In this document: positions 19,510 to 61,074 of the stretch, in pieces
How positions within the stretch are numbered: position 1 is the stretch's first letter
How the letters are laid out: every line of letters starts with the position of its first letter
Assembly: GCA_045863475.1 (NCBI GenBank)
Contig: BTUR01000002.1
Span: forward strand, 410-64,409
DNA: 64,000 bases
Source: Candidatus Campbellbacteria bacterium
GTDB lineage: Bacteria > Patescibacteriota > Minisyncoccia > Phycocordibacterales > EsbW-18
Reading direction: 5' to 3'
The notes under the pieces: generated by a model
Told to the model about the DNA's origin: nothing
Database searches by the model: none
Seen by the model: the letters and a program-made list of their open reading frames with translations, nothing else
Program-made: the position numbers and the translations under genes

Positions 19510-19537
19510 TTGACAAAATACCGTAGAGTGCTATACT
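19510..19537 (+). promoter_or_regulatory. Near-consensus sigma70 promoter with extended -10 (TTGACA-16-TGcTATACT) driving cassette A
   Basis: TTGACAaaataccgtagagTGcTATACT. Confidence 0.55.
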
Positions 19538-19585
19538 GTACACGGACAATCGAATGGTCGATTGCCGGACGCTTCGGAGGCATTC

Positions 19586-19816
19586 ATGGCGAGCAACAAG
19601 AAGTTCTGGCGGAGGGACTGCGACAAGAGCCTGCGGAACATCGGACGCCGGAGCTACTGGTTCCGCGAGCCGAGCGCTCGTCGTGAAGCGGTTCTGCCGG
19701 GTTCGAAGCTCATCCGTACCGCCGTCGTGGCCGGGTTCGAGAAGAACCGTGAGCGGTTGCCGCCGAACGTGTTCAACAGCCGCGGGGGCTGCTGCCGCCA
19801 CTTCGGCATCGCCTAG
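19586..19816 (+). CDS. Cassette A: small Arg-rich protein (76 aa) with extreme GC3 and a strong SD. Compositionally foreign.
   Basis: GGAGG sits 5 nt before the ATG. Codon positions 3 are almost all G/C (AAG, GAG, TTC, CGG..). MASNKKFWRRDCDK...GGCCRHFGIA. Confidence 0.5.
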   Translation: MASNKKFWRRDCDKSLRNIGRRSYWFREPSARREAVLPGSKLIRTAVVAGFEKNRERLPPNVFNSRGGCCRHFGIA

Positions 19817-19838
19817 AAGTCGACCAAGAACTACCGAA

Positions 19839-19876
19839 GGCGCCTCAGCACACAGTGTGCAGAGGCGCTTTTCTCA
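19839..19876 (+). terminator. Intrinsic terminator of cassette A
   Basis: GGCGCCTC agcacacagtgtgcaga GAGGCGC followed by TTTTCTCATTT. Confidence 0.6.
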
Positions 19877-19894
19877 TTTGCTACAATTATATTC

Positions 19895-20464
19895 ATGACA
19901 AATGACGCGCGCGTGAACACAGAAAACGAAATCGCGGTGTTCGGCGGAGGATGTTTTTGGTGCACTGAAGCAGTTTTCAAAGAACTTCGCGGTGTAGTTT
20001 TCGTTGAGCCAGGATATACCGGCGGAACAAAAGAACGTCCAACGTACGAAGAGGTGTGCTCGGGAACGACCGGTCACGCAGAGGCGATTCGCATCACGTA
20101 TGACCCGAAGCTTATCGCGTTCCGCGATCTCCTCACCGTGTTTTTTGCGACGCACGATCCGACGACACCAAACCGGCAGGGAAATGACGTCGGCACGCAG
20201 TACCGCTCAGCGATTTTTTACACGACACCGCAACAAAAAGAAGAAGCAGAGCGTTTTATAGCCGAGCTTGAAAAGCAGAGCACACTCGGCGGACACGTGG
20301 TTACCGAAATTACTCCATTGAGTACGTTTTTTGAAGCGGAAGGATACCACCGAGACTACTTCGCGCGGAATCCGGAGAAAGCGTACTGTCAGCTTGTTAT
20401 CAATCCGAAACTGGAGAAGGTACAAAAACAGTTTGCGGAGCTTTTGAACGATCACACACTGTAA
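19895..20464 (+). CDS. msrA: Peptide methionine sulfoxide reductase MsrA
   Basis: GGGCFWC active-site motif. Confidence 0.9.
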   Translation: MTNDARVNTENEIAVFGGGCFWCTEAVFKELRGVVFVEPGYTGGTKERPTYEEVCSGTTGHAEAIRITYDPKLIAFRDLLTVFFATHDPTTPNRQGNDVGTQYRSAIFYTTPQQKEEAERFIAELEKQSTLGGHVVTEITPLSTFFEAEGYHRDYFARNPEKAYCQLVINPKLEKVQKQFAELLNDHTL

Positions 20465-20483
20465 CGATTAAAAACGCACAACA

Positions 20484-20513
20484 AAAAAGACCCCTGTGCA
20501 GGGGTCTTTTTTG
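20484..20513. terminator. Bidirectional intrinsic terminator
   Basis: AAAAAAGACCCCTG tgca GGGGTCTTTTTTG. Confidence 0.8.
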
Positions 20514-20542
20514 TTGTGCGTCACATCACGTGATGTGTACCG

Positions 20543-21967
20543 CTATGCTCCTGATTCGGTTGTCGTTGACAACTCATCCGACAAAGATGCGTTATCCGAT
20601 TCATCAACCGACTGCACTCTCAGGTAGTAGAGGGTGGCTGGTGAGAGATCCTCAATAACCAATTCGTGATCGGTTACGAGTGCGTCACTGCCGATGAATG
20701 CCCCTGTCTCGCTGACATCAACGGGTGTGCTTGTCCCGAAGAATGCCTTCGAGTCAGACGGCTCGTCGGTCGTCCACTGCACGACTATGGACTCATCTGC
20801 GGGGAGCATAATGATGTCGCTGATAACAGGCGGTACATCATCCGGCGGAGGCGGAACATCCTTGACCTCAACTGATGTCGTTGCTACCGCGGTTGCACCG
20901 GCGTCGTCTTGTACCGTGAAGGTGATGATGTACGAACCAGCCTCCGCGTATGTGTGCGTGAAGGTCGAGGTTTGTACAAACGGCTCGCCCATCATGATGC
21001 TGCTTCTGAGTGTTGCACTGTCGCCCCAGTCAACGGAGTAGGAAAGCGGTCCGTCCTCCGGATCAAGGGCGTTGACTGTCCATTCCCCTTCCGCGTCAAC
21101 CTCAATCGTCTCCGGTCCCGCAACCGATGTGATAACCGGGTCTTCGTTCTCGGGCGGCTCGACCGCCGGCGTCGTGAAGGTTACCTCAGACGATGTCGCC
21201 ACACCGCCGTCCCGTGTTTCTGAACGGGCGACTGCGTAGTACATGGTGTCGGGTTCAAGGTGCTTTAGGTTGATGACGTGGTGCTTTACCCGGCCGCGAC
21301 GGTGTACATCCGGGTCATCTGACATATCAACCGGGGATGAGGTGCTCACCCACACCGAACTGTCGGAGCGAATGTCGGTGTCCCACACAATCTTTGCCTT
21401 GTACGGCGACTTCACATCGACCGAAAGATCGGAGATTACCGGGGCCTGGACTTCATCGCCATCTACGCGCACCGTGACGGATGACTTTGCCGTGCGCCCC
21501 TCCTCATCCATCACCGTGAATCGAACGGTGTAGACGCCATCGTGGTCGTAGACGTGCGAGAAGGTTGCCGTTTGCACGAACTCTTGTTCAGCCTTGAATG
21601 CGCGAGAGAACATGTTGCTGTCTCCCCAATCAACGGCGTAGGAGAGGGAGCCGTCCTCGGGGTCCGATGCGCGAACCTCCCACGTACCTTCCTGTCCTGC
21701 GGATAGAACAGTCGGTGCGGTTATGCCGGAGATGACCGGCGCGCGATTTTCCGCTGCGAACGCTGAGCGCGTGCGGCCTTCCAAGAACTTACTCCAGAAG
21801 GAACCCCAGCGCGATGCGTCATCGCGAGAATCCGACTTGAATTCCGCGCGCGCCTTGGTTTCAGAATATGCACGACCGTCCTTCTTTTCAGCCAGCGCGA
21901 ATGCTGACGGAAAGGCGAGAGCGGCGAGCATAAGTGATCCAAGGACTATTTTTTGTGTTTTTCTCAT
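20543..21967 (-). CDS. Secreted repeat protein with 2x (PKD-like + FN3-like) modules
   Basis: A signal peptide, then two roughly 190-aa internal repeats (..DPEDGSLSYAVDWGDS.. and ..DPEDGPLSYSVDWGDS..), each followed by a PVISD..VWDTD / VQWTTD module. Confidence 0.7.
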   Translation of the reverse strand: MRKTQKIVLGSLMLAALAFPSAFALAEKKDGRAYSETKARAEFKSDSRDDASRWGSFWSKFLEGRTRSAFAAENRAPVISGITAPTVLSAGQEGTWEVRASDPEDGSLSYAVDWGDSNMFSRAFKAEQEFVQTATFSHVYDHDGVYTVRFTVMDEEGRTAKSSVTVRVDGDEVQAPVISDLSVDVKSPYKAKIVWDTDIRSDSSVWVSTSSPVDMSDDPDVHRRGRVKHHVINLKHLEPDTMYYAVARSETRDGGVATSSEVTFTTPAVEPPENEDPVITSVAGPETIEVDAEGEWTVNALDPEDGPLSYSVDWGDSATLRSSIMMGEPFVQTSTFTHTYAEAGSYIITFTVQDDAGATAVATTSVEVKDVPPPPDDVPPVISDIIMLPADESIVVQWTTDEPSDSKAFFGTSTPVDVSETGAFIGSDALVTDHELVIEDLSPATLYYLRVQSVDESDNASLSDELSTTTESGA

Positions 21968-22106: not shown

Positions 22107-22158
22107 GATGTGTGGATAACTCACTTGCCAAGGTTTGGTGGTGGTGTAGCATCAATTC

Positions 22159-28557: not shown

Positions 28558-29028
28558 ATGGAGTCATTTATTTCATTTTTAAACGATTCGCACGCCGTGC
28601 AGTTGCTTGTCGCACTGCTCCTCGGTGTGTTTGTTGGCGCTGAGCGCTCACGGGCGGGGAAGACGGCGGGATTGCGCACGTACGGCCTCGTGTCACTCGG
28701 TTCATGTCTCTTTGTGCTTGTCTCGGTTGCGGTTGTGCCGTCGGTGGTCGGTGTCACCGGTGCTGACGTCATGCGCGTTGTTGCGGGTGTGGTCACTGGT
28801 ATCGGCTTCTTGGGTGCCGGCGCCATCATCATGCGTGGGGAGACACTCACGGGACTCACGACTGCAGCAGGGCTGTGGGTATCCGCCGGCATCGGTGTTG
28901 CGGTTGCCCTTGAACTCTACGCACTGGCAGTTGTAACAACCGTCCTGACCTTACTGGCGTTTACTGTTTTGTGGTCTGTGGAACACAAGGTTGTGGGTGT
29001 TGATGACAAAATAGACGGGAACTACTAA
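28558..29028 (+). CDS. MgtC/SapB-family membrane protein
   Basis: 4-5 TM helices and a GLTTAAGLWVSAGIG motif. Confidence 0.75.
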   Translation: MESFISFLNDSHAVQLLVALLLGVFVGAERSRAGKTAGLRTYGLVSLGSCLFVLVSVAVVPSVVGVTGADVMRVVAGVVTGIGFLGAGAIIMRGETLTGLTTAAGLWVSAGIGVAVALELYALAVVTTVLTLLAFTVLWSVEHKVVGVDDKIDGNY

Positions 29029-29029
29029 C

Positions 29030-29059
29030 TTGACTTTTTTGACATTTGTGTAGTATAAT
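29030..29059 (+). promoter_or_regulatory. Consensus sigma70 promoter (TTGACT-18-TATAAT) for cassette B
   Basis: TTGACTtttttgacatttgtgtagTATAAT. Confidence 0.55.
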
Positions 29060-29089: not shown

Positions 29090-29362
29090 ATGGCAAAGGC
29101 CTTCTACCGAAAGGAAGAGGCTCTTGAGAGGGGTTTTTGCCCGAGCTGTGGCTGGGAAAAGGACAACGAGGACAGGTCGCAGTCGAACTGTTTCGACTGC
29201 TGTGTCCTCCCGCCGACCACCCGGACTCGCTCAGCAACCCCGACCTCTCCCAAGAGACAGTCGAGGCGAAGCACTCCGAAGAGCGTTGCTTACCGCAAGG
29301 TGCAGTCGCTCTGCCAGATGGCCGAGTCTCGGAACAACCCGAGACGCACGCCGCGCTGGTGA
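29090..29362 (+). CDS. Cassette B: small protein with an N-terminal zinc-ribbon (CPSCGW..CFDCC) and an Arg/Ser/Thr/Pro-rich tail. Extreme GC3 with a strong SD.
   Basis: AAAGGAGAG sits 7 nt before the ATG. A GC-rich hairpin + T-run terminator follows at about 29383-29424. Confidence 0.45.
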   Translation: MAKAFYRKEEALERGFCPSCGWEKDNEDRSQSNCFDCCVLPPTTRTRSATPTSPKRQSRRSTPKSVAYRKVQSLCQMAESRNNPRRTPRW

Positions 29363-29438
29363 AGGTCTCCCTCGCACATGGTCCCCAAAGCGGTTTTCCG
29401 CAGCGGGGGCTTTCTTTTTTCATGGTACACTGCACGCT

Positions 29439-30233
29439 ATGGCAGGATATCGGCAAAAACTTTTTGACCCGGAGTCGAAAGAGCCGTTCAAGCTCTCTCG
29501 TTCCAAAATCGATCTCTTTACGCAGTGCCCTCGTTGCTTTTATCTCGACCGACGCCTCGGTGTTTCGCGCCCCTCGATGCCCGGCTTTACGCTCAACGTC
29601 GCAGTCGACCATCTTTTAAAGAAGGAATTTGATACGCACCGCGCAGCCGGCAGCGCGCATCCGCTCATGCAACAGTACGGCGTTGATGCGGTGCCGTTTG
29701 ATCACGTCAATATGGATGTGTGGCGCGAGAACTTCAAGGGTGTTCAGTACACAGATCCGGAAACGAACTTTTTGATTACCGGTGCCGTTGACGATATTTG
29801 GGTAAATTCCAAAGGAGAACTTCACGTCGTTGATTACAAAGCAACGTCAAAAGAAGAGGACCCGAACCTCGACGGTATCTGGCAGCAGGGATACAAGCGG
29901 CAAATGGAGGTGTACCAATGGCTGCTGCGTAAAAACGGATTTGATGTTTCAAACACCGGCTACTTTGTGTACGTGAACGGCAAGAAAGACCGCGCGGCGT
30001 TTGATGCAAAACTTGAGTTTGATGTGCTTCTCATTCCGTACGACGGTGATGATGCGTGGATAGCAACAACACTTGCCGCCGCGCGCGAAACGCTTTCAAA
30101 GAATGAGTTGCCGCCGGTCGGAGACCGCTGTGAGTACTGTCCATACCGTGAAGCAGCGGGCAAGTCGCTGCAGGCGCTCGTTAAAAAAGGTCATGCAAAA
30201 CAAAAAGAAGGAGAAGAAACCCTTTTCGGGTAG
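29439..30233 (+). CDS. PD-(D/E)xK nuclease with 4-Cys cluster (Cas4/RecB-family, DUF83-like)
   Basis: N-terminal Cys (QCPRCFY), core VVDYKATSK (D..K), QMEVYQWLL, and a C-terminal CEYCPY. The 130-aa upstream ORF extension is discarded. Confidence 0.65.
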   Translation: MAGYRQKLFDPESKEPFKLSRSKIDLFTQCPRCFYLDRRLGVSRPSMPGFTLNVAVDHLLKKEFDTHRAAGSAHPLMQQYGVDAVPFDHVNMDVWRENFKGVQYTDPETNFLITGAVDDIWVNSKGELHVVDYKATSKEEDPNLDGIWQQGYKRQMEVYQWLLRKNGFDVSNTGYFVYVNGKKDRAAFDAKLEFDVLLIPYDGDDAWIATTLAAARETLSKNELPPVGDRCEYCPYREAAGKSLQALVKKGHAKQKEGEETLFG

Positions 30234-30492
30234 TACGACCGCGTTTGCGCAAAAGGTGTACGCAGTCGTCGCAAAAATTCCGAAAGGCATGATGATGACG
30301 TACGCGGGGGTTGCAAAGTGCGCCGGGCGCCCACACGCCGCGCGCGCCGTGGGAACCATCATGAGCCGCAATCGCGATACACGCGTGCCGTGTCATCGCG
30401 TCATTCGCTCCGACGGCGGGATGGGCGGGTACGCGTTCGGCGGTCCCGCAAAGAAACGCGCTCTCCTCAAGCGGGAAGGCGCCATGCTATAA
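30193..30492 (+). CDS. ogt: Methylated-DNA--protein-cysteine methyltransferase, DNA-binding/catalytic domain only (Ogt-like)
   Basis: [36 protein letters not shown] has the canonical PCHR active site. Overlaps the 3' end of the nuclease gene in another frame. Confidence 0.7.
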   Translation: MQNKKKEKKPFSGSTTAFAQKVYAVVAKIPKGMMMTYAGVAKCAGRPHAARAVGTIMSRNRDTRVPCHRVIRSDGGMGGYAFGGPAKKRALLKREGAML

Positions 30493-32159: not shown

Positions 32160-32161
32160 AT

Positions 32162-32202
32162 AAAAAAATCGAGCCGCGGCGCCTCTCTGGGGCGTCGCGG
32201 CT
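32162..32202 (-). terminator. Intrinsic terminator of cassette C (minus strand)
   Basis: AGCCGCGGCGCC tctct GGGGCGTCGCGGCT followed by a T-run on the minus strand. Confidence 0.6.
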
Positions 32203-32212
32203 TCGTACGTCT

Positions 32213-32473
32213 TCACACGGGAACGGCATGCTCGTCGTAGGAGATGTCGGTTCCTGACAGCGCCGAGAGGAGTGCCAGATTGCGATCGGCGTCCGACATC
32301 GGGTCATGTCGCAGGTCTTCGATGAGCTCGCTCGCGGCGCGAAGATGCTTCTCGACCTTGTTGCGGCGCTCTCCCGCAGGAAGCTGTCCTATCTGCTTGA
32401 GCAGTCCGCTGATGCGTACCTTGAAGTTCCCGATCCAGTGTTCGTGTCCGGAATGCGGAGCAATCTTCCTCAT
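32213..32473 (-). CDS. Cassette C: small helical protein (86 aa) with extreme GC3 and a strong SD
   Basis: GGGAGGAAACC immediately precedes the ATG. The extended -10 TGgTACGAT lies upstream. MRKIAPHSGHEHWIGNFKVRISGLLKQ... Confidence 0.5.
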   Translation of the reverse strand: MRKIAPHSGHEHWIGNFKVRISGLLKQIGQLPAGERRNKVEKHLRAASELIEDLRHDPMSDADRNLALLSALSGTDISYDEHAVPV

Positions 32474-32556
32474 GGTTTCCTCCCGGGTGGTCGTTCTGCC
32501 CGGCATCGTACCACACTTCTTGTTGAAAATGCGACCACCACGTACAATGTTTTTAT

Positions 32557-33816
32557 ATGCGACAATCACAGCTGTTTACCAAAACACGAAAAGAAGCGCC
32601 GTCGGACGAAGTGGCGAAGAACGCACAACTGCTTATTCGTGCCGGGTTTGTGCACAAAGAAATGGCGGGGGTGTACGACTTGCTTCCGTTGGGGTTACGT
32701 GTATTGAACAGGATACGAAAAATAATCGGGGAAGAGATGGAAAAACTTGGCTCACAAGAGATTATTATGTCGGCACTTCAGGATAAGGCGGTGTGGGAAA
32801 AAACTGATCGGTGGGATGATGAAAAAGTTGATATTTGGTTTAAATCAAAATTGAAATCAGGCAATGAAGTTGGGTTTGGATGGTCACATGAGGAGCCTAT
32901 TACAAATATGATGGTGCCGCATATCGCCAGCTATAACGATTTGCCGCGATACGTTCACCAGTTCCAAACAAAGCTTCGAAATGAGACACGTGCAAAAAGC
33001 GGTCTTCTTCGTGGCAGGGAGTTTGTTATGAAGGATATGTACTCTTACGCCGTATCAGAGGAGGACCATATGGCATTTTACGAAAAAGCACAGGAAGCAT
33101 ATATGAATGTTTTTCGTCGTATGGGGTTAGGTGACATCACCTATGTTACATCGGCCTCGGGCGGCTTTTTTACCGATAAATTTAGCCATGAATTCCAAAC
33201 GCTTTGTGATGCAGGTGAAGACACAATTTATATCAACGCAAAAGAAAATTACGCCATAAACGGAGAGGTGTTCAATGCAGAGACGCTTGCAAAATTAGGA
33301 GCAAAAGAGTCTGATTTTGAAGCAAAAAAGGCGGCGGAGGTTGGGAATATATTCACGTTCGGAACAAGTAAGTGTGAGGAACTTGGTTTGATGTATACCA
33401 CAAAAGAAGGTGTGCGTGTGCCAGTGTTCCTGGGTTCGTACGGTATCGGTCTAACAAGACTGATGGCTGTTATTGCCGAAGTGTACGGTGACGAAAAAGG
33501 ATTGCGCTGGCCGAAGGAGGTCGCACCGTTTGACGTGCATGTTGTTGTGCTTGAAAGTCGCGAAGGAAAAGGCGTGCACACGTACGCTGAAAAAATTGTT
33601 ATGGAGCTTGAGCGCGAAGGCAGAGCGGTGCTCTACGATGACCGTGCTGTCTCAGCGGGAGAGAAGTTTGCGGATTCGGATCTTATCGGTATTCCGGTTC
33701 GCGTCGTCATATCGGAGAAACATCTGGAAGGGAAGACTGTCGAGCTTAAACGGCGTGACAGCGACACGGCGGAGGTTATCCCGGAGTCGGAACTTTCCCG
33801 TGCCCTTGACGCGTAG
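32557..33816 (+). CDS. proS: Proline--tRNA ligase (short bacterial form lacking the editing domain)
   Basis: N-terminus MRQSQLFTKTRKEAPSDEVAKNAQLLIRAGF aligns to ProRS, with class II motifs and a C-terminal anticodon-binding domain. Confidence 0.85.
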   Translation: MRQSQLFTKTRKEAPSDEVAKNAQLLIRAGFVHKEMAGVYDLLPLGLRVLNRIRKIIGEEMEKLGSQEIIMSALQDKAVWEKTDRWDDEKVDIWFKSKLKSGNEVGFGWSHEEPITNMMVPHIASYNDLPRYVHQFQTKLRNETRAKSGLLRGREFVMKDMYSYAVSEEDHMAFYEKAQEAYMNVFRRMGLGDITYVTSASGGFFTDKFSHEFQTLCDAGEDTIYINAKENYAINGEVFNAETLAKLGAKESDFEAKKAAEVGNIFTFGTSKCEELGLMYTTKEGVRVPVFLGSYGIGLTRLMAVIAEVYGDEKGLRWPKEVAPFDVHVVVLESREGKGVHTYAEKIVMELEREGRAVLYDDRAVSAGEKFADSDLIGIPVRVVISEKHLEGKTVELKRRDSDTAEVIPESELSRALDA

Positions 33817-45290: not shown

Positions 45291-45306
45291 TCCTGATTTT
45301 AAAACA

Positions 45307-45343
45307 AACACGGCAACCTAAAGGTTCTTAGGTTGCCGTTTCT
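45307..45343. terminator. Bidirectional terminator between murF and cassette D
   Basis: CGGCAACCTAA aggttc TTAGGTTGCCG with T-runs on both strands. Confidence 0.65.
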
Positions 45344-45352: not shown

Positions 45353-45646
45353 CTAGCGGGTCAGGGGCCAGGACTTATCTCCGAACGTGTCAGTCCCAGT
45401 CGACCGCTCGCTTCCCGTGACGGTGGGAACGCGTTCGCGAGCGATCTCCACCATCTCGATGAAGAGGAGGTGTGCCTGGTAGTCAGGGTCGTCCTTGTCC
45501 GGGATGTCCAGGACACTCCACATCCTCAACAGCACCGGGAATGCCTTCTTGGGACCGACCTCCTTCGCGAAGACGTCGTACATCTTCTGTGCCCGCTCGC
45601 GAGTTTTCGCGAGTTCCTGGTGTACCTGGTCTGCTGTATCCGTCAT
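45353..45646 (-). CDS. Cassette D: small acidic helical protein (97 aa) with extreme GC3 and a strong SD
   Basis: AAAGGAGCATACCCC precedes the ATG on the minus strand. A TTGACAAAATAG box lies upstream. MTDTADQVHQELAKTRERAQKMYDVF... Confidence 0.5.
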   Translation of the reverse strand: MTDTADQVHQELAKTRERAQKMYDVFAKEVGPKKAFPVLLRMWSVLDIPDKDDPDYQAHLLFIEMVEIARERVPTVTGSERSTGTDTFGDKSWPLTR

Positions 45647-45939
45647 GGGGTATGCTCCTTTCTGGCGAGCACAATATTATAAAAAAACTATTTTGTCAAT
45701 AAACGAGCACGGCGACTCCGTACCGGAGTCGCCGTTGCGTTCACCCCACGACGCGCTTATAGAGCGTGTGTCCGATGGCGAACGTGAGAAGCGTTACGGA
45801 GATGCCCACCACGACAACCGTGGCCGTCAGCGTGACCCACTTTGGCATGGCGACCTCCTTTCTTTCTGAACCCATCATTCGCCTGTACCTTGAAAAAAGC
45901 AAGTGTGACAAAAAATACGCCCCGCGGGCGTATTTTCTA

Positions 45940-46017
45940 TGGTGACCTCATCGGGATTTGAACCCGAGTTTACGCCGTGAGAGGGCGTCGTCCTGGACCA
46001 GGCTAGACGATGAGGCC
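45940..46017 (-). tRNA. tRNA-Glu(CUC) with encoded CCA
   Basis: The reverse complement GGCCTCATCGTCTAGCCTGGTCCAGGACGACGCCCTCTCACGGCGTAAACTCGGGTTCAAATCCCGATGAGGTCACCA. A hairpin + T-run terminator follows at 45912-45938. Confidence 0.9.
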
Positions 46018-46066: not shown

Positions 46067-46130
46067 CCGTGAGAGGGATTGAGGGCACTGGTGTGCCGTC
46101 AATCCGTAGACCAGGCTAGACGATGAGGCC
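46067..46130 (-). pseudogene. tRNA-Glu 5' fragment (24 nt identical to the tRNA-Glu(UUC) 5' end) plus an anticodon-loop-like remnant. Not a complete tRNA.
   Basis: The minus strand reads GGCCTCATCGTCTAGCCTGGTCTA..CCCTCTCACGG but lacks the 3' acceptor and T arm. Confidence 0.55.
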
Positions 46131-46188
46131 GTGCGGACAGAATACAAGAAAACGAAAGCCAAATCAATAAAAGGCGAGCGCAATTTGC

Positions 46189-46776: not shown

Positions 46777-46845
46777 TTTTCTGGTGAAAACGGGAGTATA
46801 GTTTCTGTAGCAAACAAACGTTCTTTGTCGCGGAAGGGGGGAGGT

Positions 46846-47196
46846 ATGAGAACAGCACTGCGACAGCACGGTCGGCGTCTCTTCGTCCGGTTCATGATGT
46901 GGTTCGCGAGTTGCAAGCCATGCCATGCCGATGACGGGGTTTCCTGGGAGTTTCACTGCTTCAATTTCTCAGGTGGTCCGCGCTTCTGCATCCTCCGCAA
47001 GGACGGTTTCATAGACGTCGGGTCCTGGTGGGCGATTCGAGTCCTGTTGAACAAGGACGGCGAGCTCGTCAACTGCCGGTTCTGGCGCAACGTCATGGAA
47101 CCCGGCGATGTGCGCACCACCGGCAAGAGGGCACAAGCGGCGTTTACCGCCTGGGTGGAATACCGGGATCCGTCTGCCGCAATCGGCTTGAGATGA
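46846..47196 (+). CDS. Cassette E: Cys/Trp-rich small protein (116 aa) with extreme GC3 and a strong SD
   Basis: GGGGGGAGGT immediately precedes the ATG. Two hairpin terminators follow at 47218-47265 and 47300-47325. Confidence 0.5.
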   Translation: MRTALRQHGRRLFVRFMMWFASCKPCHADDGVSWEFHCFNFSGGPRFCILRKDGFIDVGSWWAIRVLLNKDGELVNCRFWRNVMEPGDVRTTGKRAQAAFTAWVEYRDPSAAIGLR

Positions 47197-47343
47197 CAGC
47201 CCGCTCCGGGCCACGACTTTGCCGCCGCTATCGTTTTTACAACGATGACGGCGGCATTTCTTTTGTACCCTGTTGCTCCGCGGCATTTTTTGTTGTAGTA
47301 TCGTTTGCACCGCCCACGGGGCGACTTTTCTTTTATGGATGCC

Positions 47344-49241: not shown

Positions 49242-49296
49242 TACGCAGATTGCGGGTACTGGACAAATACAAAAATTCAGGTTATTATTGTCCGCA

Positions 49297-49321
49297 GAAA
49301 GAGGCATCGTGCCTCTTTTTC
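49297..49321 (+). terminator. typA terminator
   Basis: GAAAGAGGCA tcgt GCCTCTTTTTC. Confidence 0.7.
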
Positions 49322-49350: not shown

Positions 49351-50430
49351 ATGAAGAGGGCATTCCGTCTGTTCGCAGTACTACTGCTTCTGCCGCTCTC
49401 AGCGTTCGCCCAGTCCCTGCTGGTCTGCGCCGCCGACACCCACATCGCCCGTAAGGGCGACTTCCTCAACGGTACGACCAGCGTCGTGGACCAGGGCGTC
49501 TGGGAGTGGGAGATCGATTCGGGCAACACCTACTCCAACATCCAGGGTGTTTCGGCTCACGGGATGCTGTACGCGACGAACTCGCTCAGCGATCCCATCT
49601 ACGCGTTGTCGGTGTTTTCCACCGCCAACCTGCTCGTCGGCCGCTACAACGCCAATCCGACGACGCGCCCGTACGCACAAGACGTGGACTTCCTCTGGGA
49701 CGTCTGCCTCTTCGATCCGGCCGCCTACGGGATGACCGTGGAGCTTTTCGAGGGCATGGAGGGGAACGATGGTTACTGCACGATGGCGACGGGTTACTAC
49801 GCTCGTCTCATCGGCCAGTTCCCGAACCCGTACGACAATGTCGACCGTCATCTGACGGCCGGGCGCGGTTCGCTTTCCGGCTGGGACCTCTCGGCGCACA
49901 TTCGCGCTTCGTGGCGTTCGGGATTCGTCTCGTACGCCCAGGGCATGGTGGAACGCATTCTGGAACGTCGTCCCGACTGGGAGCACGTGCTTCTCGGCGG
50001 ATACGACTACACGGAATCGTCCCACGGCGCACTCGCGCGTGTCATCGGCGAGATGCACGCGACGGGTGACGTCAACGAAGACGCATACCAGGAGAGCCTG
50101 GACCTCGTGGATCTGCTGCTTGCCGCACAGGCACCCGACGGGTCCTGGGGTCAGAGCGACTACCAGAGCACGGCGTACGTGCTTCTGGGGCTTCGCTCCG
50201 ACGAAGGGGGGTACACCGCCTCTGCTGCGCGTCGCACAGCAATCATCGCGGGTGAAAACTTCCTGCAGGACAGCGCGACCTCGTCGCCTTCGTGCGGCTG
50301 GAGTCATCCGCCGGAGTACGGCGAGATGAACAGCGAGGTCATCATGGCACTCTCACTCATCAACTCTCTGCCGTTCCTCGACGGCTTCGAGAGCGAGGAC
50401 ACTTCGGCCTGGACCGCCGCGGCGGAGTAA
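49351..50430 (+). CDS. Cassette H: secreted 359-aa protein with prenyltransferase/squalene-cyclase-like (alpha/alpha-toroid) repeat motifs. Extreme GC3 with a strong SD.
   Basis: AAGGAGA lies before the ATG. Signal peptide MKRAFRLFAVLLLLPLSAFA. DGSWGQSDYQSTAYVLLGL resembles the PFTB/SQHop repeat. A hairpin + T-run follows at about 50453-50505. Confidence 0.55.
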   Translation: MKRAFRLFAVLLLLPLSAFAQSLLVCAADTHIARKGDFLNGTTSVVDQGVWEWEIDSGNTYSNIQGVSAHGMLYATNSLSDPIYALSVFSTANLLVGRYNANPTTRPYAQDVDFLWDVCLFDPAAYGMTVELFEGMEGNDGYCTMATGYYARLIGQFPNPYDNVDRHLTAGRGSLSGWDLSAHIRASWRSGFVSYAQGMVERILERRPDWEHVLLGGYDYTESSHGALARVIGEMHATGDVNEDAYQESLDLVDLLLAAQAPDGSWGQSDYQSTAYVLLGLRSDEGGYTASAARRTAIIAGENFLQDSATSSPSCGWSHPPEYGEMNSEVIMALSLINSLPFLDGFESEDTSAWTAAAE

Positions 50431-50533
50431 CTCCGTCTTCTTGGTCCTTCGCCCCGCCTCTGTATTCGTGTTTGCCACGAGTGCAGTGTGCGGGGTTTTT
50501 CTTTTTCAACACACAGCGTGGTGGTACAGTGAT

Positions 50534-50860
50534 GTGGTGAAAAAAACAATCGGACCAACCTTTAGCGAGCGGGTTATCCGACTCGCGCAAAAAATTCCCC
50601 CAGGGCGCGTGACGACGTACGGGCGCATCGCGCGTGCAGCCGGCGGTGGCGGTATGGCGGCACAGAGTATTACGTCTATTTTAGCAAAAGCATCTGAGCA
50701 GGGAATTACAATTCCGTTTCACCGCATCGTGTACGCTGACGGCCGCATTTGGGTGAACGAAACGTACCGCGCAAAGCGCATGAAGGTATACAAACAAGAG
50801 GGAATAGAAATTGAAAACGATCGCATCAAGCATTTTTGGGACGTTTTGTACGAGTTTTAA
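50534..50860 (+). CDS. Alkyltransferase-like (ATL) protein: an MGMT DNA-binding domain with the active-site Cys replaced by Phe (PFHR). GTG start.
   Basis: KIPPGRVTTYGRIA..ITIPFHRIVYADGRI is homologous to the Ogt HTH + PCHR region but lacks the Cys acceptor. Confidence 0.5.
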   Translation: MVKKTIGPTFSERVIRLAQKIPPGRVTTYGRIARAAGGGGMAAQSITSILAKASEQGITIPFHRIVYADGRIWVNETYRAKRMKVYKQEGIEIENDRIKHFWDVLYEF

Positions 50861-51322: not shown

Positions 51323-51544
51323 ATGCGGCGTCGTTGCCACAAGTGCAAAGTATGTATCGAAGCATGTTTTGGCTTCGTAAAGTCCGGGGATTTCCTCGAA
51401 GCATTGGAGGGAACGCGCGCGTGGGAGGATGTGCGCGAACTCTGCGGCAGGTGTGTCCTTGTGGTGTCGCTCAATCTCGATGGCACACCAAAACCCTACG
51501 AGGAGTTCTGTGCGCGCCTCGAAGAGATTTACGCTGCGGCGTAA
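51323..51544 (+). CDS. Small ferredoxin-like Cys-rich protein (CxxCxxCxxxC)
   Basis: CHKCKVCIEAC 4Fe-4S-type motif plus CGRC. GAGGAGGG SD before the ATG. Confidence 0.4.
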   Translation: MRRRCHKCKVCIEACFGFVKSGDFLEALEGTRAWEDVRELCGRCVLVVSLNLDGTPKPYEEFCARLEEIYAAA

Positions 51545-53430: not shown

Positions 53431-53910
53431 GTGGCTCACACACACGACGCGATGCAAGAACGAGTCTTGACAGAAGCCCTCGCTCGCGGCTTTCCCGCAC
53501 GGCGCATCGAAACGGTGCGTCCAAACCGCGTCAAACTGTTGAGTAAGACGGATGTTTTTATCAACGGTCGGTTGTGCCATTTGCACCACCTCATTGGTTT
53601 CCGAAGAATGGACGAACGGTGCTACTCGATGCTGGGTGTCAGAAAATCATCACTCGCGTTATCGGCATTTACCTTCGTGCTGTGCAGAATGTGTGATGGC
53701 AGGGAACAGCTGTACATCATTCCCAGTCGGGTTCTCCTGAATGCTATGCGCGACAGCAAGGCTTTCAAGCGCTTTTACATTCCGCACCAGCCGAAGGACC
53801 GTTGGCGGATTGTGTTTCTCGGGAATCTCGACTGGTCCCTCTACGAAGACGCGTGGCACCTGCTCTCGCAGGAGTCCGTCGCTTCCAGCGCCTCAACCCG
53901 TACGGGTTGA
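53431..53910 (+). CDS. Hypothetical protein (159 aa), GTG start with an AGAGGAGA SD. Its C-terminus is encoded inside the terminator hairpin.
   Basis: ORF with His/Cys-rich segments (LCHLHHL, CRMCDG). Terminator GCCTCAACCCG ta CGGGTTGAGGC GTTTTT at 53887-53920. Confidence 0.45.
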   Translation: MAHTHDAMQERVLTEALARGFPARRIETVRPNRVKLLSKTDVFINGRLCHLHHLIGFRRMDERCYSMLGVRKSSLALSAFTFVLCRMCDGREQLYIIPSRVLLNAMRDSKAFKRFYIPHQPKDRWRIVFLGNLDWSLYEDAWHLLSQESVASSASTRTG

Positions 53911-57208: not shown

Positions 57209-57793
57209 ATGAAAACCGTCATCGGCATAGACGAAGCAGGCAGGGGACCACTAGCCGGACCGGTTGCCGTCGGATGTGTGGTGATTCGCTCACGCGCGGT
57301 GTACAAAGCGTTTCCACGCGTACGGGATTCCAAGAAGCTTTCACCGCAACGTCGCGATGAGTGGTTTGCCAAAATCCGTCGTCTCAAAAGGGAAGGTGCA
57401 CTTTCATATGCCGTTCGAATGGTTAGTGCGTCCCTCATAGATACACACGGCATCGTTTGGGCGATTTCACGCGGGATTACGTCGGCGCTGAAGGGTGTTG
57501 ATGCCCGCCCGGGTATGAATGTGCTTTTAGACGGCGGATTACGTGCCCCACAGGAATACACACACCAAACAACCATTATTAAAGGAGATGAAAAAGAGCT
57601 TGCGATTGCGCTTGCTTCCATTGCGGCGAAAGTGACACGCGATCGGTACATGGTGAGAGTTGGGAAGCAATACCCGCGCCATGGATTCGGGATTCATAAA
57701 GGATATGGGACAAAAGCGCATGCGCGGGCAATACGAAAATTTGGAGTGACGCCCCTACACCGAAAGACGTTTTGCCGTGCTTTGACAAAATAG
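57209..57793 (+). CDS. rnhB: Ribonuclease HII
   Basis: GIDEAGRGPLAGPV signature. Confidence 0.9.
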   Translation: MKTVIGIDEAGRGPLAGPVAVGCVVIRSRAVYKAFPRVRDSKKLSPQRRDEWFAKIRRLKREGALSYAVRMVSASLIDTHGIVWAISRGITSALKGVDARPGMNVLLDGGLRAPQEYTHQTTIIKGDEKELAIALASIAAKVTRDRYMVRVGKQYPRHGFGIHKGYGTKAHARAIRKFGVTPLHRKTFCRALTK

Positions 57794-57871: not shown

Positions 57872-58405
57872 GTGGGAAGTGGTGCAGAGTGGTTCTGCGC
57901 GGGGACGAAAGCTCCCGCTGGAAAGGCCGAGCTACTTGTCGGCAGGTACTACCCGGACTTCAAAAGAGATCCGGAGCACTTCCAGATCAAGTTCCTCGGA
58001 GGTACCCAGAAGGTCACAAAGGGTGTGTGTGAAAGCACTCCTGAGGAAACGCTGTATCGGGAGATGCTCGAGGAGGTACTCGCACCCGGCGGACGAGTAA
58101 TGTCCTGCGAGCAAATCGATGCCGCAACCGTTTCACTCCCCGGCCACAAGAAGTGCTTCTATCTCATCACACTCGAGGGGCCGCTTCGTGAAAGCGATCT
58201 CTACGAGATCGAGTACGACGTGCGACTGAAGCGCGATCGCACCGAGAAGCTCTCGCCGCCGTTCTACATGGACGTGCGCGAGCTGTGGCACGCGATCTTT
58301 CCAGGGCACCGTGAGGCGCTTAGGCAAATCATCTACTATCTTGCCGCGCGTCGGCCCGAGTGGGCGTGGGCGGCAGCAGATCTCGCCGAGGAGCTTGCCG
58401 CTTGA
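57872..58405 (+). CDS. Cassette F: 177-aa protein with a possible degenerate NUDIX-like box (REMLEEV). Extreme GC3, GTG start and a strong SD.
   Basis: AGGGGG precedes the GTG. K=AAG and E=GAG throughout. Terminator GGCCTGAAGTTG...CAACTTCGGGCC TTTTCG at 58409-58460. Confidence 0.45.
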   Translation: MGSGAEWFCAGTKAPAGKAELLVGRYYPDFKRDPEHFQIKFLGGTQKVTKGVCESTPEETLYREMLEEVLAPGGRVMSCEQIDAATVSLPGHKKCFYLITLEGPLRESDLYEIEYDVRLKRDRTEKLSPPFYMDVRELWHAIFPGHREALRQIIYYLAARRPEWAWAAADLAEELAA

Positions 58406-58496
58406 TACGGCCTGAAGTTGTTTGACCGAAAAGGTCCAGCAACTTCGGGCCTTTTCGTTTGCACAAAAAACCCATATTTGTTATAGTGTTTTTTGT

Positions 58497-58769
58497 ATGA
58501 CAGTCCGAATGCGTCACACGAAAGGCCACACCGGCAACCGCCGGTCGCACCACGCCCTTAAAGGGCCGCGTTTTTCCGTGTGTGCATCATGCGGAAGCTC
58601 ACACATCCGGCACCAGGCGTGCCCGACGTGCGGCAACTACCGCGGACGGACGGTCATTGATATGAAGTCCCGCCAGGACAGAGCGCTTGCTCGCAAGCAG
58701 GCGAAACTCCGCGCACGGGGCGAGAATGCCAAGGAGGCAGCGAAAAACGAGTCAAAGGACTCGAAGTAG
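58497..58769 (+). CDS. rpmF: 50S ribosomal protein bL32 with a Lys/Ala-rich C-terminal extension
   Basis: MTVRMRHTKGHTGNRRSHHAL...CxxCG..H..CP.CG.Y zinc-ribbon L32 signature. Confidence 0.75.
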   Translation: MTVRMRHTKGHTGNRRSHHALKGPRFSVCASCGSSHIRHQACPTCGNYRGRTVIDMKSRQDRALARKQAKLRARGENAKEAAKNESKDSK

Positions 58770-58809
58770 GAGTTTGACACTTCCGCGCCGCGCATCGGCG
58801 CGCACATAA

Positions 58810-59709
58810 ATGAGTAATCGCCACTTAGCGAGATCAGTTGTTCTTCAGACGCTTTTCCAGATCGATTTCTCCTCGGTATCACCGAAGGAGGCCGATGGGA
58901 TTCTATCGCATGTCGCGGACGAATACGCGCCCGGCATCAGCGAGAAGGATTTCATGAGATCGCTCTTGAAAGGAGTTATCCAGAAGCGTAAGGATCTCGA
59001 CACCATCATCGAGAAGGCCGCACCTGAGTGGCCGATAGACAAAATCTCGCTTGTTGACCGAAACGTTCTGCGTCTCGGACTCTTCGAACTTCTGTTCGGC
59101 GACCGCGCGCACGTACCGGCGAAAGTCGCCATCAACGAAGCCATCGAGCTTGCCAAAAGCTTCGGTGGGGACTCAAGCGGTCGCTTCGTCAACGGCGTGC
59201 TCGGTTCCGTCTACAAAGAACTCGGCGAGCCGGGGAAAAACGAAACGTCAAAGAAGAAAAAAGATGTGCCGTATGATGAGATGCCGCAAGAAGTACTCGG
59301 CGGTGCATTCGTCTACGCGCGCCACGAGGATGACATCTACATCGCGTTTGTGCACGACGTATTCGGTCACTGGACGCTTTCCAAGGGTCGGATTGAAAAC
59401 GGTGAAGACGTGCGCACGGGAACGGCGCGCGAGATTCAGGAAGAATTGGGTCTGGAGGTGGCGATTCAGGAAGAAATTGGCAGCAACGAGTACATCGCAT
59501 CGCATCCGGAGAAGGGAAAAATGCGCAAGCGCGTCACGTACTTTATTGCAGAGGCACCGTTTCGCGATTTGAAACTTGGCACGTCCGGCGGTCTCGACGA
59601 TGCTCGATGGTTCCGCCTCAGTGAAATCGTGAATCTCAATATCTACGACGACATTCTGCCGCTCATCACAAAAGCAATCACTCTGCTCTCACAAAAGCAG
59701 CACACGTAA
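58810..59709 (+). CDS. nusB: NusB (antitermination factor) fused to a C-terminal NUDIX hydrolase domain
   Basis: N-terminus ARSVVLQTLFQIDF...AINEAIELAKSFGGDSSGRFVNGVL is NusB. The C-terminus has GRIENGEDVRTGTAREIQEELGL, a canonical NUDIX box. Confidence 0.75.
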   Translation: MSNRHLARSVVLQTLFQIDFSSVSPKEADGILSHVADEYAPGISEKDFMRSLLKGVIQKRKDLDTIIEKAAPEWPIDKISLVDRNVLRLGLFELLFGDRAHVPAKVAINEAIELAKSFGGDSSGRFVNGVLGSVYKELGEPGKNETSKKKKDVPYDEMPQEVLGGAFVYARHEDDIYIAFVHDVFGHWTLSKGRIENGEDVRTGTAREIQEELGLEVAIQEEIGSNEYIASHPEKGKMRKRVTYFIAEAPFRDLKLGTSGGLDDARWFRLSEIVNLNIYDDILPLITKAITLLSQKQHT

Positions 59710-59717
59710 TCATGAAT

Positions 59718-59817
59718 CCCGTTAGAGACCACTCGCGTATGTTCGTGCCCACTATTCAAAAAATATTGATGTATTGTTCGTATGCACACGAAAGTGTGAT
59801 AACCATTCTCTAACGGG
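59718..59817 (+). repeat. Second copy of the inverted-repeat pair (CCCGTTAGAGA ... TCTCTAACGGG) with a 78-nt spacer, ending 1 nt before the rnc ATG
   Basis: Left arm 59718-59728, right arm 59807-59817. The spacer is unrelated to the copy before typA. Confidence 0.7.
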
Positions 59818-60510
59818 ATGAAAGATTTTGCTCCACTAGAAAAAAAAATCGGACACACATTCGCCGACCAGTTTTTGCTTACAACGGCGTTGACGCATCG
59901 CTCCTTTATCAATGAGTCACGCAAGCACGGCGGCACGCACAACGAGCGTCTTGAGTTTTTGGGCGACGCGGTCTTGGAACTCATCACGACGGAATTTTTG
60001 TATGCACGCTACCCGCACAAAGCGGAAGGCGATCTCACCTCGTACCGTGCAGGACTCGTCAATACGTCCACACTTGCAACGGTTGCACTAGAGCTGGGTG
60101 TCAACGACTTTTTGCTGCTGTCAAAAGGAGAGTCAAAAGATACCGGTCGCGCGCGGCAGTATATTCTTGCCAACGCGTTTGAGGCAATCGTCGGTGCGTT
60201 GTTTCTCGACGGCGGTTACGAAGCCGCCCGTGCATTCGTTTCAAAGTTCCTCTTGCCGCTGACGGAAGATATTGTCGGCAAACACCTTTGGCGCGACGCA
60301 AAAAGCCGTTTTCAGGAAAAAGCGCAGGAGAAAGTCGGTATCACACCGTCGTACAAAACAACCCGGGAAGTAGGACCCGACCACGACCGCGAATTTACCG
60401 TTGCCGTTTTTTTGGGCGACGAGAAAGTTGCCGAAGGGGCGGGGAAGAGCAAGCAGGAAGCGGAACAGTCCGCTGCGGGCAACGCACTTGAGAAGAAACA
60501 CTGGTCTTAA
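59818..60510 (+). CDS. rnc: Ribonuclease III
   Basis: ERLEFLGDAVL RNase III signature and a C-terminal dsRBD. Confidence 0.9.
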   Translation: MKDFAPLEKKIGHTFADQFLLTTALTHRSFINESRKHGGTHNERLEFLGDAVLELITTEFLYARYPHKAEGDLTSYRAGLVNTSTLATVALELGVNDFLLLSKGESKDTGRARQYILANAFEAIVGALFLDGGYEAARAFVSKFLLPLTEDIVGKHLWRDAKSRFQEKAQEKVGITPSYKTTREVGPDHDREFTVAVFLGDEKVAEGAGKSKQEAEQSAAGNALEKKHWS

Positions 60511-60606
60511 ATAGCTATTGACGTAGTACCATTTTTCGTGGTACGTTCCATGCGGATTTTGTTTCGCGTCAACTACATGTCCTTGAGTGGACAGAAAGGA
60601 AGAAGA

Positions 60607-60981
60607 ATGAGAAGTGACGTTCTGGAGTTCGGTCTCTCGAAGGAAATCGCGTGCGTGGCCCTCATCGGCTACGACGGGAGGGAGATCAACCCGACCATCC
60701 TGGTGCGCTCCTGGCCGCACGAGAACTCGAACAAGACGGTCATCGTGACCGGGACTCTGAAACCGGAGCTTGTGCACGGCAGGATCGCCAAGGGATGCCA
60801 CCATTACCTGGACGGGAAGGCCTGCTCGCTCCGCACAACCCCCAGCGGCCCTATCCTCGTTGTGTGGATGTGGAGCGACGGCAAGCCTCTCCCGGAGGAA
60901 GACGAGCGGGGGTTTCAGGAGGAGTTCGACCGCGTCGCGAAGGCGATGCGCGGTCTCGCAGGACTCGCCAGCGCTGCCTGA
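60607..60981 (+). CDS. Cassette G: 124-aa protein with extreme GC3 and a strong SD
   Basis: AAGGAAGAAGA precedes the ATG. TTGACG-17-TGgTACGTT lies upstream. Terminator GCGGTGTCACC aaatcaa GGTGGCACCGC TTTTCG at 61001-61036. Confidence 0.5.
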   Translation: MRSDVLEFGLSKEIACVALIGYDGREINPTILVRSWPHENSNKTVIVTGTLKPELVHGRIAKGCHHYLDGKACSLRTTPSGPILVVWMWSDGKPLPEEDERGFQEEFDRVAKAMRGLAGLASAA

Positions 60982-61074
60982 GACGCGCAAGCACCCCAGG
61001 GCGGTGTCACCAAATCAAGGTGGCACCGCTTTTCGCATGGAAGGATTCACATTTTTTTGAGATAATAGACAGGT

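Follow-up and report, generated by a model that had tools for sequence, protein, structure and literature searches.

Eight small genes scattered among the housekeeping genes of a 64,000-nucleotide stretch of DNA from Candidatus Campbellbacteria bacterium (hereafter the window, which is the whole stretch analysed; GC content 52.7%) raise the question of whether they were captured recently from another organism or have long been part of the genome in which they lie. A preliminary description of the sequence had presented them as cassettes with extreme codon usage and strong Shine-Dalgarno (SD) sites, which would have been acquired piecemeal from an SD-using organism of high GC content, possibly the host of an epibiont, or inserted artificially. 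Our results suggest, with a probability of about 0.6, that the eight loci (C1 to C8) are long-resident atypical accessory genes, ultimately of GC-richer foreign origin, which would be expressed from native-type promoters in a genome of the leaderless type. Recency, a single host donor and artificiality were not supported.

The source record is the NCBI metagenome-assembled genome (MAG) 'Candidatus Campbellbacteria bacterium' AMXMBFR44, in which C1 to C8 are all annotated as hypothetical proteins and a 141-kb contig encodes AMXMBFR44_3320, a protein identical to C6; the TypA protein of the window was 66-78% identical to those of Parcubacteria/Paceibacteria MAGs. All eight open reading frames (ORFs) were present where they had been placed, in frame and with the start codons proposed. 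Seven Logan contigs from runs DRR491768 and DRR491769, assembled independently, crossed every cassette junction at 99.98-100% identity to the window. Because two independent read-set assemblies cover all the junctions and the eight ORFs are in the NCBI annotation, artificial insertion and chimeric assembly were set aside.

According to the proposed organisation, each cassette would be a monocistronic, self-contained unit, in which a sigma70-type -35/-10 promoter, starting in four cases with the lineage-typical 11-mer TTGACAAAATA, would be followed by a leader of about 24-60 nt bearing an SD site, a short ORF with mostly G/C-ending codons and an intrinsic terminator. These units would be interleaved with leaderless, SD-less housekeeping genes whose extended -10 promoters lie 6-12 nt before the ATG. 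The predicted elements are listed below, GC3 being the G+C content at third codon positions.

19510..19537 (+): C1 promoter, TTGACA, 16 nt, TATACT, TG-extended; opens with the shared 11-mer
19586..19816 (+): C1 ORF, 76 aa, Arg-rich, GC3 0.88, GGAGG 5 nt before the ATG; NCBI GMU74097.1
19836..19879 (+): C1 terminator, GGCGCCTC...GAGGCGC then TTTTCTC; stops just short of the leaderless msrA promoter
29003..29059 (+): C2 promoter region, aTGACAAAATA (one mismatch to the shared 11-mer), then TTGACT, 18 nt, TATAAT (11 of 12)
29090..29362 (+): C2 ORF, 90 aa, Cys-rich N-terminus, R/S/T/P-rich tail, GC3 0.75, SD AAGGAG
29380..29420 (+): C2 terminator, hairpin and T-run
32161..32205 (-): C3 terminator, GCCGCG...CGCGGC then TCGATTTTTTT
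32213..32473 (-): C3 ORF, 86 aa (gene callers: 32506, 97 aa), GC3 0.71, the weakest member (z 2.4), SD GGAGG
about 32505-32515 (-): C3 extended -10, TGTGGTACGAT
45299..45339 (-): C4 terminator, 12-bp perfect stem ACGGCAACCTAA and GTTTGTTTT
45353..45646 (-): C4 ORF, 97 aa, GC3 0.79, SD AAGGAG
45671..45699 (-): C4 promoter, TTGACA, 17 nt, TATTGT; opens with the exact 11-mer
45741..45878 (-): orf45, a possible ninth member, 45 aa, GC3 0.77, Lys AAG/AAA 3/0, own terminator at 45709-45735, weak SD
46797..46802 (+): C5 candidate -10 box, TATAGT, no good -35; the weakest promoter call, read from the sequence
46846..47196 (+): C5 ORF, 116 aa (99 aa from the NCBI start), 5 Cys, GC3 0.74, G-rich SD-like run GGAAGGGGGGAGG
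47220..47265 (+): C5 terminator, 16-nt arms TGCCGCCG... and TTTCTTTTG
49260..49288 (+): C6 promoter, TGGACA, 17 nt, TATTAT; the -35 region CTGGACAAAT is common to the Wolfebacteria copy
49298..49318 (+): C6 leader stem-loop, AAAGAGGCA-TCG-TGCCTCTTT
49351..50430 (+): C6 ORF, 359 aa, signal peptide, predicted (alpha/alpha)6 toroid, GC3 0.81, SD AAGGAG; NCBI AMXMBFR44_3320
50451..50506 (+): C6 terminator, CCCCGC...GCGGGG then TTTTTCTTTTT; conserved in the related genome L082
57782..57810 (+): C7 promoter, TTGACA, 17 nt, TACTAT, TG-extended; exact 11-mer
57872..58405 (+): C7 ORF, 177 aa, GTG start, GC3 0.69, Lys AAG/AAA 8/2
58409..58459 (+): C7 terminator, about 80% conserved with L082; the leaderless rpmF promoter comes next
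60518..60547 (+): C8 candidate promoter, TTGACG, 18 nt, TACGTT, TGG-extended; read from the sequence
60607..60981 (+): C8 ORF, 124 aa, GC3 0.83, SD-like AAGGAA
60998..61037 (+): C8 terminator, GGCGGTGTCACC...GGTGGCACCGC then TTTTCGC

The GC3 of the eight ORFs, pooled at 0.777, compares with 0.587 in the pooled native genes, whose mean was 0.594 with a standard deviation of 0.058 (60 genes in the window). When each protein was simulated with the native synonymous-codon table, that is, conditioned on its amino-acid composition, the z-scores of GC3 excess were 7.7 for C6, 5.7 for C8, 5.4 for C1, 3.6 for C4, 3.0 for C5, 2.9 for C2, 2.8 for C7 and 2.4 for C3, the three highest native scores being 3.4, 2.7 and 2.6. 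Four cassettes thus stand clearly apart, three do so moderately and C3 is marginal. The pooled codon choices differed in the same way: Lys AAG/AAA was 42/4 in the cassettes and 396/662 in the native genes (P=1e-13), Glu GAG/GAA 57/20 versus 588/746 and Phe TTC/TTT 40/6 versus 395/403, with P values for the three amino acids ranging from 1e-13 to 4e-7. Moreover, the maxima of a sliding phase-specific GC scan of the window coincided with the cassettes. The compositional difference from the backbone is not noise, and the cassettes look in this respect like horizontally acquired (atypical) genes (z 2.4-7.7, together with the pooled codon choices). The bias is strong and real, but the view that it is extreme, with a third position almost exclusively G or C, was overstated, for GC3 is 0.69-0.88 and C3 and C7, at the edge of the native distribution, overlap its upper tail.

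Expression-linked codon bias was rejected as a cause since neither the ribosomal nor the RNA polymerase genes have a high GC3 (rpsP 0.53, rpoB 0.62; typA 0.59), so that the bias does not follow expression level. Some native genes, at 32557-33816 (proS), 105-1427, 39706-40419 and 57209-57793, deviated the other way, their GC3 being 0.44-0.49 (z from -3.1 to -4.8). Upstream of tag in L082, a related genome fragment from Logan run SRR31091721 (TypA 91% identical in amino acids; covering the slots of C4 to C7), there are three genes with GC3 0.31-0.37, and the codon composition of both genomes is uneven in both directions. The 474-aa PKD/Fn3-domain protein encoded at 20543-21967 (-) has no SD and a GC3 of 0.64, yet AAG 14/2 and TTC 16/2; its gene may be a further atypical one, overlooked by GC3 alone.

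The cassettes also stood apart in their translation signals. SD pairing energies, predicted for the duplex with the canonical anti-SD, which may differ from the organism's own 16S 3' end, were -5.9 to -11.9 kcal/mol in the cassettes (-8 or lower in seven of the eight) and had a median of -2.1 kcal/mol in the native genes, three of 59 reaching -6 and orf73 alone reaching -8 (Mann-Whitney P=6e-6). Native starts were, if anything, poorer in SD-like sequence than random ATGs, with 5% at or below -6 versus 13.7%. An AGGAG-like SD 5-9 nt upstream had been attributed to every cassette; a GGAG core at this distance was found in C1, C2, C3, C4 and C6, whereas C8 (AAGGAA), C5 (GGAGG just 1 nt before the ATG) and C7 (GGGGG) deviate. 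In at least 15 of 38 inspected native starts a TAnnnT box, often TGnTAnnnT, ended 6-12 nt before the start codon. A -10 box at this distance from the ATG leads to a leaderless mRNA, which implies that the native housekeeping genes would mostly be transcribed as leaderless messages, in agreement with their earlier characterisation as SD-less and near-leaderless.

The five highest-scoring sigma70-like promoters of the 19-39 kb and 44-64 kb regions (10-11 of 12 positions matched) were all located upstream of C1, C2, C4, C6 and C7, corroborating that five cassettes have a recognisable -35/-10 pair. A stable hairpin followed by a T-run was found after all eight cassettes; the terminators previously described are real, although seven had been counted. 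A blind regular-expression scan of the whole window for -35, -10, leader, SD, start and an ORF of at least 60 aa returned C1, C2, C4 and C6 only. The 11-mer had four matches in the 64-kb window (three exact, one with one mismatch), all of them preceding cassettes (C1, C2, C4 and C7); from length alone one would expect about 0.03 exact matches. It was also found, exact and with a correctly spaced -10 box, at seven other Parcubacteria loci, in front of a DEAD-box helicase gene in one case and of small hypothetical genes in several, suggesting that this promoter type is native to the lineage and unlikely to have been imported with a foreign donor. The idea that the expression signals were brought by the donor was not supported.

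Two other small genes of the window have SD sites. That of orf73 (51323-51544, +), which had been passed over, is AGGAGG (-12 kcal/mol), and the small Cys-rich product (CxxC...CxxC) is 59% identical to that of h65 in the same slot of L082; GC3 is an ordinary 0.62 and the gene belongs to the same expression class as the cassettes. The second, orf152 (53431/53452-53910), has a probable GTG start at 53431 after GAGGAG, and its product is 35% identical to that of h173 of L082. Both are SD-led small genes kept in equivalent L082 slots without GC3 bias.

The comparison with L082, in which the backbone order tag-typA-...-thrS-dnaE-rnhB-rpmF is preserved, bears on the age of the cassettes. A C6 orthologue (83% amino acid identity, GC3 0.76, SD AAGGAG, conserved terminator) was present in the typA-thrS neighbourhood. 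The rnhB-rpmF slot contained h170, which encodes a divergent C7 homologue of 170 aa (23% amino acid identity, E=5e-9) and has a GTG start, SD AAGGAGG, GC3 0.79, Lys AAG/AAA 9/0 and a promoter, TTGACAAAAcA, in the same place as that of C7. No counterpart of C4 or C5 was found in L082, where other genes occupy the tag-typA gap. Identity at four-fold sites between the window and L082 was 0.54 in C6 and 0.42-0.48 in typA, thrS, dnaE and rnhB (saturation, 0.26-0.32), and these comparable values indicate that C6 probably diverged in step with the chromosome. C6 and C7 would already have been carried by the ancestor common to both genomes. A recently acquired gene is expected to be absent from the same slot in a close relative; C4 and C5 are absent from L082, but C6 and C7 are there. 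The earlier interpretation, piecemeal acquisition from a high-GC donor, was borne out in one part, the link of C6 to genomes of 69-75% GC. Recent capture was not supported, since two of the four testable cassettes sit in the same L082 neighbourhoods, an outcome that the preliminary description had itself named as refuting it. A tblastn search with the eight cassette proteins against 80 Parcubacteria typA loci, which are too distant (TypA 78% identical at most), gave nothing.

The origin of the cassettes could be followed furthest in C6, for which about 49 homologues were found. The high-GC homologues were 56-66% identical and came from genomes of 69-75% GC; in five of these genomes the gene had a GC content of 0.67-0.70 and a GC3 of 0.80-0.97, matching the flanks. 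Among the high-GC carriers one has genes of complex I, and a further homologue bears the label Thermoanaerobaculia. In the five Patescibacteria genomes with C6 (the window, L082, one MAG each of Wolfebacteria and Moranbacteria, and L096/L097, which was placed in the phylum from its context) the gene had a GC content of 0.58-0.63 and a GC3 of 0.66-0.81 inside contigs or flanks of 0.48-0.56, and it was richer than its surroundings by 2-14 GC points in all five and by 9-14 in four of them. The GC content of C6 fits genomes of 69-75% GC but exceeds that of the Patescibacteria flanks, which supports a foreign origin; that C6 is foreign to Patescibacteria and came from a GC-rich genome appears demonstrable. 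Homologues in composition-matched genomes, as expected of a donor lineage, were found for C6, while C8 has two homologues of unstated source. A metagenome scan with C6 returned two loci only, both high-GC. A foreign, GC-richer ancestry, shown in all appearance by C6, would extend to C1 to C5, C7 and C8.

The Patescibacteria copies of C6 share a promoter (CTGGACAAAT / CTAGACA / TTGACA), a 5' leader stem-loop and an SD, promoter and hairpin being conserved over Campbell-, Wolfe- and Moranbacteria. The stem-loop was kept in the five Patescibacteria copies, with compensatory changes in six of eight pairs, and none of the three elements, promoter, stem-loop and SD, was evident upstream of the high-GC copies. 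The C6 unit as a whole (promoter, 5' stem-loop, SD and ORF) is common to distant Patescibacteria classes. At four-fold sites the window C6 was 0.39-0.41 identical to the Wolfe- and Moranbacteria copies versus 0.33-0.34 expected, that is, saturated. In a neighbour-joining tree of the family most Patescibacteria copies cluster together. The stem-loop is located at 49298-49318 in the window and is also present in L082, L093, L095 and L096; in three of these five, namely the window, L082 and L095, a T-rich run comes after it. This 5' element could be an mRNA-stabilising hairpin or an attenuator.

The protein itself had been described as a secreted alpha/alpha-toroid protein, and C6 is indeed the only cassette with a signal peptide, its predicted fold being a toroid. 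The AlphaFold2 (AF2) model was all-helical, with a predicted local distance difference test (pLDDT) of 89 and a predicted template modelling (TM) score of 0.87. Foldseek matched it to GH88, GH105, GH76 and class II cyclases (probability 1.00, TM 0.43-0.56). The likeness to the (alpha/alpha)6-toroid enzymes of families GH88, GH105 and GH76 and the class II terpene cyclases consists of the predicted all-helical toroid (E=3e-4, TM about 0.5 to 1vd5, 3qwt and 4ce7) and the signal peptide, but identity is 9-15%, and Pfam and NCBIfam give no match. R172, W178, D179, E211, D219, W266, E325, N327 and E329 are invariant in the family. C6 looks like a member of a family not described before, with about 50 members that can be detected, predicted to be secreted. 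Most of the homologues (P0003-P0035) have an extra C-terminal stretch of about 20-30 aa ending in a conserved ...RPAALPVR or ...IQPIR motif, past a likewise conserved LPFVDGFE-DTSAW block, directly after which the proteins of the window and L082 end; the tail may be a sorting or anchoring signal lost in this lineage. Logan calls C6 as a 405-aa ORF overlapping typA.

The eight cassette proteins were unrelated to one another, as had been noted, and searches of Pfam, NCBIfam, PHROGs and PADLOC gave no match for any of them. C7 had been called NUDIX-like, a designation that was not supported: it had no Pfam match at E<=1 and no PDB sequence match, and C7 with its orthologue gave a hhalign probability of 0.1% against the window's own NUDIX protein. 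The marks of the NUDIX family (Nudix box GX5EX7REUXEEXGU, match to PF00293) were not found in it. A single-sequence AF2 model of C7 was unusable (pLDDT 38). C8 has two true relatives (62% and 39% identity) among 1.84 billion representatives, a third match being a spurious repeat protein, and its start at 60607 is backed by the N-termini of these sole two homologues. The C8 family is nearly an orphan, and no relative of C1 to C5 was detected in the collections covered, which speaks against a single high-GC host as the donor of all cassettes.

A search with seven concatenated cassette proteins (tblastn) against INPHARED phages and PLSDB plasmids gave no match, and six IMG/VR scans found no relatives. 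A phage or plasmid origin was rejected, given that INPHARED, PLSDB, IMG/VR, PHROGs and PADLOC were all without a match. No integrase, target-site duplication, flanking direct repeats or shared flanks were found at the cassettes, and although C4 and orf45 adjoin the 3' side of tRNA-Glu(ctc), there are no att-like repeats at their boundaries. That the units are integron cassettes or parts of one mobile element was likewise rejected, because the cassettes are scattered over 41 kb with their own promoters and have no common flanks, repeats or downstream motif.

Among the smaller cassettes, C1 has GC1/GC2/GC3 of 0.55/0.53/0.88, Lys AAG/AAA 5/0 and 18 Lys or Arg residues in 76 aa. It was considered as an antisense shadow of a GH18 ORF, and this was rejected: in the 525-aa GH18 ORF with which it overlaps, the N-terminus is rich in Ala, Pro and Arg and implausible, and a signal peptide (MKHALQNKLVLL..., MKHALQ) starts near 19423, 8 nt after a TATACT box, at what is most likely the true start. 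The GH18 chitinase-like gene at 18224-19801 (-) is called about 126 codons too long (525 aa), its most likely start being near 19423, and this over-extension masks C1. C2 lies in a 410-nt gap between mgtC and a PD-(D/E)XK gene (the real start of the latter is 29439), with Lys AAG/AAA 6/0 and GC2 above GC1; in C3 the Lys ratio is 5/0. C4 is positioned 3' of tRNA-Glu(ctc) (45940-46017, -). Upstream of this tRNA gene, at 46067-46133, there is a partial copy of the tRNA 5' half, consisting of a 25-nt repeat (96%) and an 11-nt exact repeat. The duplication could be what is left of a tRNA gene, or the scar of a former attachment site; both C4 and orf45 are on the 3' side of the tRNA.

Two explanations question whether the cassettes are natural protein genes. 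That they are assembly chimeras or engineered inserts might be thought from their textbook E. coli-like signals (TTGACA/TATAAT, AGGAG, hairpin with T-run), which are those expected of an engineered insert; the contigs of two runs, however, agree over all junctions at 99.98-100%, and related cassettes are present in metagenomes from other studies, so that, to the extent that assemblies can tell, this explanation has been refuted and deserves practically no credence. The shortest units (C1, C2 and perhaps C3) might not encode proteins at all, being small RNAs or spurious ORFs in GC-rich transcribed spacers. Their products have neither homologues nor family matches in Pfam, NCBIfam, PHROGs and PADLOC, the composition is odd (18 Lys or Arg in the 76 aa of C1; the R/S/T/P-rich tail and the GC2 above GC1 of C2), and C1 and C2 are not listed in the Logan gene calls for their regions. 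We nevertheless consider this very unlikely, in view of the strong three-base periodicity (0.55/0.53/0.88 in C1), the Lys AAG/AAA ratios of 5/0, 6/0 and 5/0, a correctly placed SD before the ATG of all three, their annotation by NCBI and the lack of any Rfam match at the three loci.

If the cassettes are genes, they could be recent piecemeal captures from a high-GC, SD-using donor, for instance an epibiont host, each having arrived with a foreign promoter, SD and terminator. The GC-rich composition, the C6 homologues in genomes of 69-75% GC, the absence of C4 and C5 from the related L082 locus and the tRNA gene next to C4 speak for such captures. We think this explanation unlikely, since C6 and C7 occupy the same L082 neighbourhoods and their divergence resembles that of core genes, C6 has no high-GC homologue closer than 66% identity, the promoters use an 11-mer typical of Parcubacteria, and the C6 leader is common to Patescibacteria and not visible upstream of the high-GC copies; C8 has two relatives among 1.84 billion representatives, no integrase, target-site duplication or common flank was found, and there was no plasmid or phage match (INPHARED, PLSDB, IMG/VR). 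Long residence remains the preferred reading, in which the cassettes would be old 'atypical genes' or genes circulating within the phylum, set in variable intergenic slots, and not fresh captures from a host. Several observations weigh against it. C6 appears to keep a GC3 of 0.66-0.81 whatever the GC content of its host and in spite of saturated synonymous sites, which points to something other than the slow amelioration of one ancient transfer; a bias that outlasts synonymous saturation would have to be maintained, or be due to repeated transfer from GC-richer sources. The neighbour-joining tree of C6 shows no nesting of the Patescibacteria copies in the high-GC clade, so that the direction of transfer is suggested by composition only, as is the origin of C1 to C5. 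In a signal-defined scan of other Parcubacteria loci the GC3 excess was merely a tendency in 36 cassette-type units (z>3 in 19% versus 5% of leaderless-type units; overall P=0.19). Finally, SD-dependent translation and the transcription starts are predictions from the sequence, SD sites having been scored with the canonical anti-SD. According to another explanation, the G/C-ending bias is not a relic but is actively maintained in leadered, SD-dependent genes of variable slots; the causes could be mRNA stability, SD-led translation in a leaderless-tuned cell, or GC-biased gene conversion at often-recombining loci. It is favoured by the GC3 of C6 in five Patescibacteria genomes of 48-56% GC at saturated four-fold sites, by C7 and its L082 orthologue, which have only 23% protein identity yet AAG ratios of 8/2 and 9/0 and a preference for G/C-ending codons next to non-coding flanks about 80% conserved, and by the outlier proportions of 19% and 5% just mentioned. 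On the other hand, orf73 and orf152, both SD-led and with orthologues in L082, have an ordinary GC3, the overall shift elsewhere was not significant, a direct sign of recombination or selection is lacking, and repeated transfer from GC-rich genomes gives the same pattern; we regard maintained bias as possible, though with considerable doubt. Rather improbable, in our opinion, is its most far-reaching form, that Parcubacteria run two expression tiers, a leaderless core and phylum-circulating 'plug-and-play' cassettes (11-mer -35 promoter, 5' stem-loop leader, SD, G/C-ending codons, terminator) whose bias and SD dependence would be actively maintained, for example for conditional translation or stability such as on host contact. 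Promoter architecture, codon usage and mode of initiation are tightly coupled in the cassettes, and the coupling appears to outlast the saturation of synonymous sites.

Some other features of the window were recorded. At 16382-16681 (+) there is a tRNA-Asn(GTT) whose anticodon loop is split by a 227-nt group I intron (Rfam RF00028, 60 bits, match 16405-16634), detected by ARAGORN only when introns were allowed, and an HNH-endonuclease-like ORF adjoins it at 15953-16300 (-); the 1.5 kb around the intron have the lowest GC content of the window (0.44). Two small ORFs, 30193-30492 (99 aa) and 50609-50860 (83 aa), match the DNA_binding_1 (MGMT C-terminal) domain only, and the former, with a GC3 of 0.70, overlaps the PD-(D/E)XK gene at its end.

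To our knowledge, Patescibacteria are mostly uncultured and gene expression in them is almost unstudied. Our results suggest that at least this lineage initiates most of its housekeeping genes without leader or SD, and that complete promoter-SD-terminator units serve a small group of genes that evolve fast, are restricted to the lineage and have a persistent G/C-ending bias. If the pattern is genome-wide, it would offer a simple sequence rule to spot accessory genes, a role of these in host interaction being speculative. It would also be a warning on start-site errors in gene callers, of which there are two cases here (GH18 over C1, and C6 into typA), and a test case for atypical codon usage that is maintained and does not always ameliorate. 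C6, for its part, would define an undescribed, predicted secreted alpha/alpha-toroid family common to high-GC bacteria and Patescibacteria.

Three known systems invite comparison. Like integron gene cassettes, the units described here are single, small, unrelated ORFs, each with an inverted repeat behind it; unlike them, they are scattered and have their own promoter and SD, the repeats are ordinary T-run terminators without an attC-like consensus, and there is no integrase. In the model of Lawrence and Ochman, horizontally transferred atypical genes are said to ameliorate. The cassettes resemble such genes in being patchily distributed outliers at codon position 3, with C6 homologues in composition-matched genomes, but differ from them in a bias that persists after co-divergence and across saturated copies, in native-type promoters and in having no mobility genes.

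The 'group C' genomes of GeneMarkS-2 have frequent leaderless transcripts, with the Pribnow box about 6-10 nt before the start, and other genes that are SD-led (Lomsadze et al. 2018, PMC6028130). They were described mainly in Actinobacteria and Deinococcus-Thermus, and 'atypical' GC-deviating genes, likely horizontal acquisitions, made up about 8-9% of genes (PMC6028130). In the searchable literature we found no report of group C, or of an organisation of leaderless genes plus SD-led cassettes, in Patescibacteria. The window has the short, fixed-distance -10 box without SD that distinguishes this group (6-12 nt before many native starts, in at least 15 of the 38 inspected), with SD pairing weaker than at random ATGs and a minority of genes leadered and SD-led. 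It differs in that the two classes are almost perfectly partitioned, SD and -35 promoter going with small atypical accessory ORFs and hardly any core gene having an SD. The GeneMarkS-2 paper (PMC6028130), with its leaderless group C genomes taken together with its 'atypical genes', gives the closest described framework for the organisation of the window.

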